The notes below the pieces were generated by a model, which saw nothing but the letters and a program-made list of their open reading frames with translations, was not told the origin of the DNA and did no database searches. Shown here piece by piece: positions 3,882 to 24,381 of a stretch of DNA of 24,381 nt. Both the position numbers and the translations under genes were made by a program. The stretch lies in the IMG/VR virus record IMGVR_UViG_2531839666_000027; one strand, given 5' to 3'. This DNA is from a virus (lineage: Duplodnaviria; Heunggongvirae; Uroviricota; Caudoviricetes). Position 1 is the stretch's first letter. Every line of letters starts with the position of its first letter.

Positions 3882-6691
3882 TATGCAAGCCTCACAATAT
3901 AGTTAAATGCGATGTTTTTGACGGTGTTTTCCGCGTTACCAGCAGCGTTAACGGTGATGGTGTGTCCATGTGAACCAATCGCAACGGAGTGCGTATGAGC
4001 ACCAATACCGACAGTATGCGCGTGTGCACCTGCAGATGCTGCTGTGCCGGACAGTGAATGGCTATGATTACCATCTGTACTGGTATTCGCTAACCACCCC
4101 GTAAACATACCTACTGAGCCTTGTACACCCCAGGTATTTTGACCTGAGCTTGTATAACCATATTGATAAGTATCTTTAAAAACACTGGGGTTAAATCGAC
4201 GGCCATCTCTATGGCTGTGATTACCAGCTGCATTCGTGCTGCCACTTAAACTATGGGTATGCGCACCAGTGTTATTCGTGGATTTAGTGCCGTAATCAAA
4301 CGACGATGTGGTTTTCGTCCCCAAATCCGTACTGGATGCGCTGGCGCTGTGGGTATGCGATTTAATGCCGTCCTGTTCCTGAGACAATACGGCCCGACCA
4401 CTGGCAGGTTTGCCCTTAATCGTCCAGCCACGCATATCAGGGATCACGCCTGACGGATAAGCGGCTGCAAGTTTCGGGTATGCAGATTTGTCAAAAGTCT
4501 GCCCCTGCATCAGGGCATAGCCAGACGGAACGGTATCTGATGGCCACGGGATTGGTGCGCCAGGCGGATAAAACTGCTCTGATGGCGTATAGAGTGAATA
4601 AACTGTACCGTCCGTTAACCCTTCCGGCTTATTAGCAGAATATGCTGGTGACGTATGAATCGTCACGCTGGCATTACTGGTATAATCCCATTGAATATTT
4701 ACACCAGTCGCATAATTTCCGATTGCAACGTAAATATCGTAAGTATCACCAGATGTATTGACCCAGGCAAAATTTGTAAACCCTGTCGATGTGCGCTGCC
4801 ATAAAGCACCAGTAATCCCCTTCGGATTACCATTACCTGCACGTAAAACAAGTTCAGATATACCTGCCTGTTGAGGTGACCCCACGTTAAATCCAGCGCC
4901 ACCAATCAACGTAATTGAAACAACAGAACTCGCCTGTGGCATGGTTACCGTTGCTAATTTGAACCAACCAGCACCACCGCTGAATGACATTGTTGTTGAG
5001 TTAAGCGTACCAATATCTTTCGGCGTCAGTGTTATATCCGCTGAAAGCGCCTTACCATTCACCTTACGGGCAGAAGGTACCCGACCATTCGCATTGTCAT
5101 TAGCTGCTTTCACTGCTTTCGGTGTCGCAGCAAGCGTTTCAGATGTGCTGTTGGTTGCACTACTGAGCTGGACAATTCCTTTTTGTGCTGTCGTAGCGTC
5201 CTGTGCGGTGTATTTCCCGTTAGCCAGGTCATACGCGGCCTTAACGGCTTTTGGCGTTGCCGCCTGTGACTCGGAAGTGCTGTTAGTCGCACTGCTGAGC
5301 TGAACTATCCCTTTCTGTGCTGTCGTTGCATCCTGTGCGGTGTATTTCCCGTTAGCCAGGTCATACGCGGCCTTAACGGCTTTTGGCGTTGCCGCCTGTG
5401 ACTCGGAAGTGCTGTTGGTCGCACTGCTGAGCTGTACTATCCCCTTTTTCGTCGTGCTCGCATCCTCAAGCGCCACGGCGGATGCAATATCCTCTGCCCG
5501 TTTTGCTGCTGTCTCGGCGCGCGTTGCCGCGGATTCCGCCGTACTTTTGCTCTGTGCTGCCGCTGCCGCACTGCCAGCAGCCTCTGTCGCCTTCGTGGAT
5601 GCCGTCGTGGCGCTGCCCCTCGCTGCTGACGCCTGTCTGGTCGCCTCATCTTTTGAAGCAGACGCAGATGATGCCGATGACGCCGCCGAACTGGCGGACG
5701 ATGCGGCAGCCGTTTTTGAGGATTCTGCGCTGGTTTCCGACGCTTTCGCGTTCGTTTCGGATGTCTTCGCTGCGGAAGCAGACCTCGCTGCTGCGCTGGC
5801 CTGTTCAGTGGCTTCGCCAGCCTTCGTTGTGGCTGTTGAAGCGGATGATGCGGCGCTTTCTGCCGATTTTCCGGCGGCGGTGGCACTGACTGCTGCCTCC
5901 TCTGCCTTAATGGACGCCTCACGGGCCGATGATGCAGCTGCTGTCTCAGAGTCTGCCGCAGCTGAGGCGCTCTGTTCCGCTGCCGTTTCAGAAGACCTGG
6001 CATTCGTCTCGGACGTTTTTGCCGCCTTCACGGAATTTCCTGCCGCCGTTGCCGAGGAGGCTGCACTGCTGGCGCTTGTGGAGGCGTTCGTTTCTGATGA
6101 TTTTGCCGCCTCTTTGGAGGCCGCCGCATCTCTGGCTGAAGTGGCGGCTTCTGACGCTTTCGTCGTCGCAGTGGATGCAGAAGTGGCTGCTGATTTTTGT
6201 GACGCTGCAGCATTCGTTTCTGACGTTTTCGCCGCACCGGCACTGGTGGCCGCCGCGCTTTTTGAGGACTCTGCAGCGGCAGCACTTTTTGATGCTTCAG
6301 TGGCCTTTGTTGATGCCGTTCCTGCGCTGGAAGACGCCTCCTGAGCCGAAGTCGCGGCCTGTCCGGCTGACGTGCTGGCTGCACGCGCTGAGCCTGCAGC
6401 ATCAGTCGCATGGGTTGCCGCCTCACGGGCAGATGTGCCGGCATCACTGGCTGACTTCTTCGCGGCTGCCGTGTTCTGTGCCACCGCGGACGCGTTACGC
6501 GCCACCTCTTCCACCATCAGTTCAAAACGGCGCAGAGCCTCCGGACGGGCATCATCCTCCGTCATGGCACCGAGAAAATCATTCAGCGTACCGGGTCGGG
6601 AATCTTCATACACGGTGATGGTCCCGGCATGTGACGGCGGGAATCCTTCCACCAACAGAATAACGCTGTACTGACCGTACTCAACGTCCAT
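3881..6691 (-). CDS. stfQ: side tail fibre protein Stf, 5'-truncated by the IS (lacks about 50 N-terminal codons relative to lambda Stf); open frame continues to the IS boundary at 6699
   Basis: 936-aa ORF; Ala/Ser/Thr-rich rod, repeated [14 protein letters not shown] modules, C-terminal His-rich domain ...[38 protein letters not shown] as in lambda Stf. The frame upstream of the first ATG stays open (..[11 protein letters not shown]) until the IS end. Confidence 0.85.
5080..5460. repeat. about 2.8 copies of a near-perfect 132-bp tandem direct repeat inside stf (44-aa module [44 protein letters not shown])
   Basis: Directly visible: cctgtgcggtgtatttcccgttagccaggtcatacgcggccttaacggcttttggcgttgccgcctgtgactcggaagtgctgtt recurs at about 5201 and 5333 with 1-2 mismatches, plus a partial copy below 5200. 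Confidence 0.8.
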
Positions 6692-6707: not shown

Positions 6708-9021
<2,314 letters not shown>

Positions 9022-22170: not shown

Positions 22171-22202
22171 AAAATAAAAACAAAAACCCGCCGAAGCGGG
22201 TT
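22171..22202 (-). terminator. intrinsic terminator downstream of hokD (stem CCCGC-TTCG-GCGGG followed by a T-tract on the minus strand)
   Basis: plus aaaataaaaacaaaaacccgccgaagcgggtt; the minus strand reads hairpin then TTTTTGTTTTTATTTT. Confidence 0.6.
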
Positions 22203-22270
22203 AAGTGCGGGTGCGTTGAGGATGCCTGCCACATCAGAGGTGGCGAGGGATTTCTCCCTCGCCGGGTTTC

Positions 22271-22426
22271 TTACTCCTCAGGTTCGTAAGCTGTGAAGAC
22301 AGCGACCTCCGTCTGGCCGGTTCGGATTCGTACCTCGCAGAGGTCTTTCCTCGTTACCAGTGCCGTCACTATGACGGTTAAACAGATGACGATCAGGGCG
22401 ATTAACATCGCCTTTTGCTGCTTCAT
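22271..22426 (-). CDS. hokD: Hok-family membrane toxin (type I toxin), 51 aa
   Basis: MKQQKAMLIALIVICLTVIVTALVTRKDLCEVRIRTGQTEVAVFTAYEPEE: single TM plus conserved Hok C-terminus; ATG 22426..22424; ORF-track frame extends upstream to 22483. Confidence 0.85.
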   Translation of the reverse strand: MKQQKAMLIALIVICLTVIVTALVTRKDLCEVRIRTGQTEVAVFTAYEPEE

Positions 22427-23100
22427 AGCCTGCTTCTCCTTGCCTTTCGGCACGTAAGAGGCTAACCTACATATGTCTAGCATGAAATTGGCCTCAGATT
22501 AATGTTAAGCGTCTTGCAGGACGCGTAATGTTAACTGGGGCTTTTCTCTATCTGCCGTTGGTGTTCATGCCCGAGGCAGATAGCCTCAAGCACCCGCAGC
22601 CATTCTACTTAACTACCGTTACCTCGCCAATGTGAAATCAGTCAGAAAGGCGATCCATAAGAACAATAGCAAGACAATAAATCGCCATTACAGCCGTAAT
22701 AGCCAGCGCACATTTGAGAACCAGCACCACAACCTCCTGTATTGGACGTAGACCAGTCCTGATGAATATGAGGCTGTCTCGTCAGTGATTCAATACAACT
22801 ATTGGGTATAGTTTCTCTGATTTTTTCTGTGGAAATGGGGCACAACCACTAGTCACCACCAGCACTTCTTTTAATACGCAAAGTCCGACACAAGCTAACC
22901 TTCTAGTCCGCTTTGAGCGAAAAACAGCCATAATTTAGTGCCACGTATATAATGATAGAGCTATTCAAGCTAGCAATTCACATGTAAAAATTCAGAGGGT
23001 AGAAGCACATAGTTATAAATGTTGGCTCCATCGACAAATTGCGGTCTCAAGTACATTTATTAATGTTGCCCCCGCATTAACAAATCATCAAGGTGACGAC

Positions 23101-24381
23101 ATGGACGATATTAATATCAGCCTCGACGAACTTAACACTATTGATTTATCCCCCTTAATCCAGAGTAAGCTGCCAGTTACCTGCTTTGATATCACAAAGT
23201 ATCTTTCTAGCCTAGGTGATGGAAGAGCGGAGATAAGACTGCTAACCCATATTTGCGGTTTTCACTTTCGTCCCGAAAATCCACAGGTACCATTTGGTCC
23301 GTGCTTTCAAAGCAGCCAAGGTAGATCTGCAATTCCGGATGACATTAACGGGTTGTCGCTGGAGGTACTTTCTCAATTTTGCCCGACGATAGAGCTACCC
23401 GAACTTCAAGCTCGTATTGCTGATACACTTTGGGTTCGTAAAATTGGTGGAATCCGTTTTCCTTTGCTGGCAGTCCGTGCTTATTATGCGTCCAGTATAG
23501 CTATTATGACATCGCAAGGGACGTGGGTTAGTGCTTTAGAACGCCTAGAGCGTGCGCTTAGGCTGTGTTGTTTTTTTCGAAAGCATACTGATTTCAGGGA
23601 TGAATTTGATCAGCTTTCGGCACATCTACTAGCAGAGTATGAACGTACCAGAGAACAAGGCGATTCACCTTATCCGCTGCGACTCCTGCAACTCGATATC
23701 GACTGTAAAGTGAGTGAGCCATCTTTTATTGCCCAGGAACTCCTGTTTCTGACAAAAAACTATCTGGCTCAAAAATTATTTTCATTTGCCGTCGATGCCT
23801 GTAAAACCGCAATCCCGATTGCGAATAGGTGCTGTGACAGAGATACACAGTTTGAATTCTGGCGGCTTCTTGCCGATACACATCTGGAAGAGTCAAAATT
23901 CCAAGATGGCGGTATGATTTCGGCAGCCTGCATGCAGAATGCTATTGAAGCACTGGCTAATATTCCAGGAACCCGAATAGAACGTCTTGCGCTGTATGAA
24001 GAAATGCGTGATTACCAAATCGAATCCCGTCACCAGATGTCTATCCTTCAGTCTCCCCCTCAAGATATTAGTGAGATTGTCCATCAAGCCAAGAGTCGGG
24101 TAGTCGGAAGAGATTTGTTTGATATGGTTTTCAGACTTGCGATGCTGGTCTGTCGGCCAACCAGCATTGAGAGACTTAAGGCTCAAGCAATAGAACAAAA
24201 GGCCAACAGCATAGCTTGGATGTTTGGATCAACACATATTGATCATGAGGGAATGACACTTGCTCGCATACCCGCAGGATTGGGGATTGATGATGCAAAT
24301 GGGGCAGTTATTTGGCCCATAATGATGACGAGAATGCGTATTGAACCGCCCCGGTTTTCCGGGAGAGTGTTTTATCTGTGA
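23101..24381 (+). CDS. hypothetical protein, 426 aa, function unknown; opposite strand to the prophage late genes
   Basis: Complete ORF ATG 23101 to TGA 24379-24381, preceded by an AT-rich promoter-like region; no Walker A, HNH, DDE or other motif recognised by eye. Confidence 0.7.
   Translation: MDDINISLDELNTIDLSPLIQSKLPVTCFDITKYLSSLGDGRAEIRLLTHICGFHFRPENPQVPFGPCFQSSQGRSAIPDDINGLSLEVLSQFCPTIELPELQARIADTLWVRKIGGIRFPLLAVRAYYASSIAIMTSQGTWVSALERLERALRLCCFFRKHTDFRDEFDQLSAHLLAEYERTREQGDSPYPLRLLQLDIDCKVSEPSFIAQELLFLTKNYLAQKLFSFAVDACKTAIPIANRCCDRDTQFEFWRLLADTHLEESKFQDGGMISAACMQNAIEALANIPGTRIERLALYEEMRDYQIESRHQMSILQSPPQDISEIVHQAKSRVVGRDLFDMVFRLAMLVCRPTSIERLKAQAIEQKANSIAWMFGSTHIDHEGMTLARIPAGLGIDDANGAVIWPIMMTRMRIEPPRFSGRVFYL

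Follow-up and report, generated by a model that had tools for sequence, protein, structure and literature searches.

The nearest described relatives of the gene analysed here, which encodes a DUF7380-DUF4209 protein and lies upstream of hokD in an Escherichia coli prophage, are the family catalogued as PDC-S39 and, in its presumed mode of action, the HEPN protein HepS. PDC-S39 is one of 145 phage-defence candidates that a 2024 study derived by guilt-by-embedding within BREX, DISARM or type I restriction-modification (R-M) loci, and the authors call these candidates untested; elsewhere in the literature PDC-S39 is mentioned only in inventories. HepS, from the Salmonella prophage Gifsy-1, is a solo HEPN protein that rests as an inactive oligomer and, once activated by a Siphoviridae tail-tip protein, cuts tRNAs within their anticodon loops (PMC13043305). 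The copy of the gene analysed occupies one end of a 24,381-nucleotide stretch of DNA (IMG/VR virus record IMGVR_UViG_2531839666_000027; hereafter, the window), where it is interrupted by an insertion sequence (IS).

The intact form of the gene, as found in strain ATCC 25922, matches both PDC-S39 models end to end and has the same two Pfam domains (DUF7380 and DUF4209/'EMARD_N'), the same length and the same single-gene layout, whereas the window copy ends at residue 414 of 595 and lacks the DUF4209/HEPN domain; PDC-S39 is itself a candidate only. Like the intact gene, HepS is a single, prophage-borne gene with a canonical R-x4-6-H motif and no inhibitory partner, and it occupies an accessory-gene position adjoining lambdoid replication genes (PMC13043305). 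However, no sequence relationship between the two proteins was detected, and HepS consists of a single HEPN domain with the motif R100-H105 (PMC13043305), whereas approximately 435 aa of DUF7380 and TPR-like sequence precede the HEPN domain in the present protein. By analogy, HepS may nevertheless serve as the best mechanistic model for the intact protein. The other HEPN toxins and abortive-infection (Abi) proteins compared, i.e. the HEPN/MNT toxin (7ae2), SO_3166 (5yep), AbiV, the C-terminal HEPN domain of AbiA, RnlA/LsoA and Csm6, show 7-16% sequence identity to the present protein, which differs from them in having no MNT, antitoxin or CARF partner and in its domain architecture.

Anantharaman et al. 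2013 (PMC3710099) placed DUF4209, the family typified by human C6orf70, in the HEPN superfamily and predicted that it is catalytically active; they also recorded fusions of DUF4209 to TPR and its presence in R-M related operons. Bacterial and eukaryotic members form one family in that survey; the eukaryotic C6orf70/ERMARD proteins share the DUF4209 HEPN domain and, in a comparison with the present protein made by description only, differ in having a single transmembrane region and in having been likened to the endoplasmic reticulum stress sensor Ire1 (PMC3710099). In the literature searched, DUF4209 appears in this 2013 survey only, no paper mentions DUF7380, and none links ERMARD with HEPN.

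Interruption of the gene by an IS3-family element

An open reading frame (ORF) of 426 codons, starting with ATG, is present at 23101..24381(+) in the six-frame ORF list, and a Shine-Dalgarno-like AAGGTG lies 6 nt 5' of its start codon. Its translation is the one quoted in the preliminary description of this DNA, which had taken the ORF to be complete. Its first 414 residues match, with 100% identity, a 595-aa protein of ATCC 25922 (WP_000340969.1, 'DUF4209 domain-containing protein'). When the segment 22484-24381 was compared by megablast with 5,426 complete E. coli genomes, at least 80% of it was covered in 148 genomes and all of it in four. The matches that are not full break at query base 1861, i.e. 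window position 24344, and the gene there runs on to 595 codons. In the four full-match genomes the annotation reads as a DUF7380 protein, followed by an IS3 family transposase and then a DUF4209 protein. The window ORF is thus a chimera in which native codons 1-414 are followed by 12 residues (EPPRFSGRVFYL) and a TGA stop codon supplied by the end of the IS. The features at this end of the window are as follows.

23101-24341, plus strand: native coding part, consisting of codons 1-413 and the first 2 bases of codon 414 of 595; it encodes DUF7380 (residues 4-166) and a TPR-like helical region, without HEPN.
24339-24341, no strand assigned: left TAT copy of the target-site duplication, from the junction alignment (GCGTAT/TGAACC... 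and ...GATTCA/TATCGACC; slashes mark the junctions).
24342-24381, no strand assigned: initial 40 bp of a 1310-bp IS3-family element, at its terminal inverted repeat end (TGAACCGCCCCGG...); homology to the intact allele breaks here, and the junction is identical in four complete genomes.

The boundaries of the insertion were defined by aligning the locus of strain FHI_NMBU_11 (NZ_CP045712.1, 54634-57734) with the uninterrupted allele of ATCC 25922, which gave GCGTAT/TGAACCGCCCC... at the left junction and ...GGGGCGATTCA/TATCGACC at the right junction, with a 3-bp TAT target-site duplication flanking the element. The insertion point is codon 414/415 of the 595-codon gene, and the IS starts at window position 24342. 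The complete copy of the element (locus L001, 9859-11168) is 1310 bp long, has the ends TGAAC... and ...ATTCA with imperfect terminal repeats (26 of 40 bases matching), and carries a transposase gene for which a programmed frameshift and an ALIL pseudoknot are annotated. It thus shows the TG...CA termini, imperfect inverted repeats, 3-bp duplication, length of approximately 1.3 kb and frameshifted transposase of the IS3 family. Judging from its terminal sequences, it presumably belongs to the IS3411/IS629 group.

The window ORF is therefore, with near certainty, the front part (the 5' 70%) of a DUF7380-DUF4209 gene split by an IS. Contrary to the preliminary description, its last 12 codons and stop are IS3-family sequence from 24342 onwards; the part lacking downstream is the gene's own catalytic domain rather than any partner gene. 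The four complete genomes are 99.9% identical over the whole 24-kb window, which suggests that the element inserted once, and recently, within one lineage.

All of the catalytic residues are located 3' of residue 414, in the part removed by the IS, and the window allele is accordingly read as a pseudogene fragment that is most probably non-functional. We consider it very unlikely that the split allele still works, whether the 426-aa part were to serve alone as a decoy or sensor or to regulate related systems in a dominant-negative manner, or whether it were to act in trans with the 163-aa HEPN part. Both fragments are open and annotated as coding sequences in the four complete genomes, which are of Norwegian, Japanese and Canadian origin; RefSeq lists the exact 426-aa product (WP_001371416.1, 'DUF7380 domain-containing protein') on 34 contigs, compared with 866 contigs for the intact 595-aa form; and the 163-aa remnant, which starts at M433, retains the entire HEPN domain with all of the invariant residues. 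The near-identity of the four genomes, however, fits one recent insertion rather than selection, the last 12 residues of the 426-aa product are accidentally encoded by the IS, and the cut interrupts a helix, predicted at residues 404-434 in the AF2 model, by which the two halves of the protein are joined. In addition, the gene is unsplit over at least 80% of its length in 147 of 152 carrier genomes, and the best matches in the family are full-length. The remnant itself lies beyond the IS (L001, 11227-11718, plus strand) and has its own annotation as a 'DUF4209 domain-containing protein'.

Domain architecture and a candidate role in phage defence

In the window ORF, Pfam DUF7380 (PF24098) is matched at residues 4-166 (E 1.6e-34), and both PADLOC models for PDC-S39 are matched (E 1.2e-50) over model positions 54-435 of 615 only. 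The intact ATCC 25922 allele matches PDC-S39 over model positions 54-602 (E 1.7e-102). DUF4209 is missing from the window ORF, is located at residues 484-573 of the intact allele (Pfam), and is kept in the 163-aa remnant of FHI_NMBU_11. The window copy is thus a shortened member of PDC-S39 and falls short of the full-length single polypeptide of approximately 600 aa. A Pfam match to MreB_Mbl (E 0.14; 11 bits, cut-off 27) was dismissed as noise.

The preliminary description had been unable to place the ORF in any family. The alternative, an entire gene from a family not described before and possibly with downstream partners, would be in keeping with the lack of an NCBIfam model matching the ORF and with the silence of the literature searched on DUF7380. 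This reading is refuted by the confident Pfam and PADLOC matches, by the IS at the end of the ORF, and by the intact loci, which have no partner and continue into a DUF977 gene on the opposite strand; the product itself already has a RefSeq entry. A match to a well-characterised family, or relBE remnants upstream of hokD, had been named in the preliminary description as grounds for giving up its proposal; neither was found. A family match does exist, but the family is only catalogued and predicted, and it is functionally uncharacterised.

A database search yielded 152 homologues from Enterobacteriaceae, Vibrio, Aeromonas, Pseudomonas and cyanobacteria, nearly all of 590-650 aa with both domains. 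When 1.84 billion cluster representatives were searched with a profile, 7,104 matched at E <= 1e-3, of which 2,676 reached E <= 1e-30, nearly all of the best 150 being full-length (approximately 600 aa); the family size of approximately 2,700 refers to clusters at 50% identity with E <= 1e-30. Among 29 homologues that share 24-81% identity with the E. coli protein, R546, H551 and G552 within the motif LRNQLAHG are invariant, as are P481, Q482, E484, N485, S486 and R488 within the motif IPQIENSLR. R-x4-H is the catalytic signature of HEPN domains; the corresponding R546-NQLA-H551 is conserved across the family and is missing from the window ORF, the native part of which ends at residue 414.

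The full-length AF2 model of the intact protein is all-alpha (pLDDT 87.5), and its C-terminal domain is predicted to adopt the four-helix up-down fold of HEPN. The architecture of the intact protein is DUF7380, followed by a TPR-like solenoid and a C-terminal DUF4209 domain of HEPN fold. From this prediction and the conservation described above, the intact protein very probably has both the HEPN fold and its motif. In searches against known structures, the full-family profile retrieved only weak TPR-like matches among Protein Data Bank (PDB) chains (E >= 0.008); the C-terminal domain alone and its profile retrieved only chance matches to kinase and T-cell receptor chains (E >= 0.2); and Foldseek comparison of the full-length model with the PDB gave only weak matches to TPR repeats (query-normalised TM-score <= 0.23).

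Two predictors have independently flagged the family for defence. Apart from the PDC-S39 catalogue, the tables of DefensePredictor (Science 2026) list WP_021514655.1, an E. coli DUF4209 protein of 595 aa (1788 bp), with a log-odds of 4.34 as a 'Predicted novel defense gene'; its source is one of the E. coli test strains of that study, and it is matched to the present gene by length and domain only. A 602-aa paralogue, WP_000710784.1 (log-odds 7.4), has the same label and is linked to the present gene by description only. The same tables give the C-terminal domain of AbiJ as the nearest known defence homologue of E. coli DUF4209 proteins, with values of approximately 0.19-0.23 and 66-73, presumed to be coverage and probability, respectively. 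The possibility that the gene is a system validated by DefensePredictor was considered and rejected: it is in the prediction tables and outside the table of tested units. From the PDC-S39 match, the DefensePredictor flag and the position of the gene in a slot for variable cargo (see the next subsection), we infer that an anti-phage role of the intact protein is reasonably probable.

A mechanism for such a role can be proposed largely by analogy. The intact 595-aa protein would be a self-contained, single-chain abortive-infection RNase triggered by phage, with a DUF7380/TPR-like part that would restrain the activity of the HEPN domain and sense a phage-derived trigger. Activation would pair two HEPN domains, thereby forming a composite R-x4-H active site, and the activated domain would cleave cellular RNA (tRNA, rRNA or mRNA), such that translation and phage production stop. 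The IS would then have parted the sensor-like N-terminal piece (the 426-aa chimera) from the catalytic domain (the 163-aa remnant outside the window). Overall, the locus is probably best explained as an IS-broken fragment of a candidate abortive-infection RNase gene.

Several points weigh against this explanation. Neither WP_021514655.1 nor WP_000710784.1 is among the 118 units tested in the DefensePredictor study, and the score of 4.34 is barely over the cut-off of 4 used in that paper. The literature searched contains no experimental report of phage defence by any member of the family. Some homologues, such as that of Vibrio cholerae, have housekeeping genes as neighbours and no further defence genes close by. 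The truncated product of the window allele may also have some residual function.

The absence of experimental reports and the V. cholerae context would also suit an intact protein with a role other than phage defence, i.e. as an addiction or toxin module, in RNA processing or regulation that aids the prophage, or as a non-catalytic HEPN scaffold like MtlR, and the eukaryotic C6orf70/ERMARD branch of DUF4209 is conserved, housekeeping-like and traced to the last eukaryotic common ancestor (PMC3710099). We regard such a role as unlikely. The invariant R-x4-H and the polar motifs upstream of it point to catalysis; the gene has no conserved antitoxin-like partner and stands alone in the E. coli cassette, in a P2-like phage and in an Enterobacter kobei prophage; and, in addition to the two predictors, the slots in which it resides are shared with Abi genes and defence candidates.

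In its widest form, the reading of the locus as a broken defence gene would make the intact PDC-S39 family a widespread single-protein anti-phage immune sensor, in which a DUF7380/TPR-like receptor is fused to a HEPN RNase; the slot described below would be an uncharted defence hotspot, and the IS-split allele a natural loss-of-function control or, less likely, a two-piece version working in trans. The prospects of this wider proposal appear evenly balanced. For the window itself, the result corrects the record, in that the seemingly mysterious gene proves to be a catalogued one in broken form, its apparent C-terminus being IS sequence. The wider value is modest and lies in the large size of the family, the agreement of two independent predictors and the occurrence of the gene at no fewer than three phage cargo sites. 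If the intact allele proves defensive, it would represent a new HEPN-based abortive-infection family that shares its catalytic domain with human ERMARD.

The cargo slot and the hok/sok region

The segment between hokD and the gene, and the gene's own 5' region, contain the following features.

22271-22426, minus strand: hokD, a type I toxin gene of 51 codons plus stop; K-12 HokD aligns by tblastn at 22426-22274 with 100% identity over 51 aa, and the gene is annotated as hokD in identical genomes.
22421-22595, minus strand: hok/sok regulatory element (Rfam RF01794 'sok'; 112.7 bits, gathering threshold 59, E 3.4e-26, full model 1-157).
22596-22921, no strand assigned: conserved spacer of the prophage backbone that separates hok/sok from the cargo; 1475 complete E. 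coli genomes contain 22441-22921 at >=80% coverage, and alignment with genomes carrying different cargo stops at 22921.
22922-23100, plus strand: cassette-specific AT-rich 5' region (GC content 0.40), presumed to contain the promoter and ribosome-binding site; its left limit was obtained by blastn (L002 position 8438 = window 22921).

The GC content falls from 0.52-0.53 near hokD to 0.40 at 22800-23249 and is 0.44-0.46 across the ORF. The AT-rich segment of the preliminary description is thus real and corresponds to a foreign insert of lower GC content. A promoter scan upstream of the gene detected no plus-strand sigma-70 consensus site at the threshold of the tool. In a blastn comparison of ATCC 25922 with a strain carrying a DUF5677 cargo gene, homology was lost at window position 22921 and regained shortly ahead of the DUF977 gene, at a point 88 bp beyond the stop codon of the intact gene. 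On the basis of these sequence limits, the intact cassette is approximately 2.05 kb long and contains a single gene (locus DR76_RS17050 of ATCC 25922, NZ_CP009072.1); counting approximately 180 bp upstream and 90 bp downstream of that gene, it spans L002 8438-10493. The next gene in intact loci is the prophage DUF977 gene on the opposite strand, and no conserved downstream partner was found in the E. coli, P2 or E. kobei loci.

The distribution of the gene across strains, a check proposed in the preliminary description, is patchy: 152 of the 5426 complete E. coli genomes carry it, always on the chromosome and with at least 99% identity, and in 147 of them it is in one piece over at least 80% of its length. 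Cluster members at 90% identity come from the Enterobacter cloacae complex and Klebsiella pneumoniae and include full-length 595-aa forms, which suggests that the cassette has recently been transferred horizontally within the Enterobacteriaceae. The contents of the slot were inspected in six of the genomes that carry other cargo, the left flank having been found in 1475.

Fox isolate (L012, 2463-3709): a DUF5677 protein.
VTB97379v (L013, about 4000-5700): a RelA/SpoT-domain protein matching PDC-S33 (E 7e-119).
O6:H16 2011EL-1370-2 (L014): an AbiH gene broken by IS1.
Ecol_244 (L015): a hypothetical protein of 269 aa.
O80:H26 EC-107 (L016): four genes, including those for a SAM methyltransferase and an SMEK-domain protein (Aga-like PADLOC match).
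K-12 (L003): relBE-ydfV-flxA.

The presence of such varied cargo at one position is the signature of a prophage hotspot for defence or toxin-antitoxin genes, located between hok/sok and the DUF977/replication genes, and the slot looks like a convenient place to mine E. coli prophages for defence cargo. The suggestion of the preliminary description that the ORF is moron- or defence-type cargo is borne out to this extent, i.e. by its PADLOC candidate match and by the AbiH, PDC-S33 and SMEK genes in the same slot, but the ORF is a fragment and is not undescribed.

Homologues were also found at other sites. In the P2-like phage vB_EcoM-569R9 (L004, 4041-5972), a homologue matching PDC-S39 (E 8.5e-85) is located between the replication gene A (gpA) and the portal gene Q (gpQ). 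We take this site to be the old/tin position of P2. ORF612 of P2-EC46 (L005, 220-2058) gave a weaker match, by tblastn only (E 4e-15, with 22.5% identity across 61% of the query); neither ECOR46 nor ORF612 is mentioned in Rousset 2022, which deals with P2/P4 hotspots. In a lambdoid prophage of E. kobei (L010/L011, 8001-9815), a solo homologue lies between antiterminator Q and the holin gene, and in V. cholerae and Pseudomonas homologues reside in small islands. The V. cholerae island has two genes and lies between a TauE-family gene and a gene for the large subunit of carbamoyl-phosphate synthase. Its second gene, an ORF of 160 aa located 172 bp downstream of the homologue on the same strand (L006-L008, 9958-10440, plus strand), has no Pfam or PADLOC match and is a possible lineage-specific partner, which is not found in the E. 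coli cassette.

In the Qin prophage of K-12, hokD is flanked by relBE, and the preliminary description had noted the lack of a RelE/RelB-like ORF at the corresponding position of the window. The K-12 Qin segment (NC_000913.3) and the window share the backbone ydfT, ydfU, rem and hokD with 98% identity by blastn, and the homology ends at window position 22440, which lies 14 nt 5' of the hokD ATG and is where relE begins in K-12; nothing past hokD was matched. K-12 RelE, RelB, YdfV, FlxA, YdfW and YdfX left no remnant in 22427-23100 when compared with the window by tblastn, the best matches in or near 22484-23100 being of 6-8 residues with E >= 3.9 (nearest RelE/RelB match, 6 residues, E 3.9). 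The absence of relBE beside hokD, including from the interval 22484-23100, was thus confirmed by translated search, but the region upstream of hokD is not empty, as it contains the RF01794 element.

This element lies on the hokD strand, and the match may model Sok itself or its target, the hok leader. A minus-strand sigma-70-like site at 22630->22602, a consensus match only, could be the promoter of the hok mRNA. The same Rfam search did not find RF01794 in the hokD-relBE region of K-12 (L003, 4900-6300). Thus, relBE is present in K-12 and missing here, whereas the hok/sok element is present here and missing in K-12. Because RF01794 is kept in the window and K-12 homology stops at relE, the relBE-hokD arrangement of K-12 looks, from sequence comparison, like a derived state that arose by a larger replacement which removed hok/sok; this replacement also took out the DUF977 and replisome-organiser genes.

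Outside this region, a second, different IS3-family element was found at approximately 6710-7887 (minus strand) of the window, between a tail-fibre gene and a truncated fusion gene for a ClpP-like prohead protease and the major capsid protein, which is annotated as lacking its C-terminus in an identical genome (L017). The window itself starts inside ydfJ, an annotated pseudogene without its N-terminus. From the IS3-family element beside the truncated protease/capsid gene and the ydfJ pseudogene, the prophage is judged to be defective.

Just downstream of hokD, at 22181-22262 on the minus strand, there is a sub-threshold Rfam match to isrK, an Hfq-binding small RNA (25.7 bits against a gathering threshold of 50). 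The match overlaps a terminator-like GC-rich hairpin at 22241-22264, an equally weak match is present at the equivalent position of K-12, and the sequence is probably the hokD terminator.

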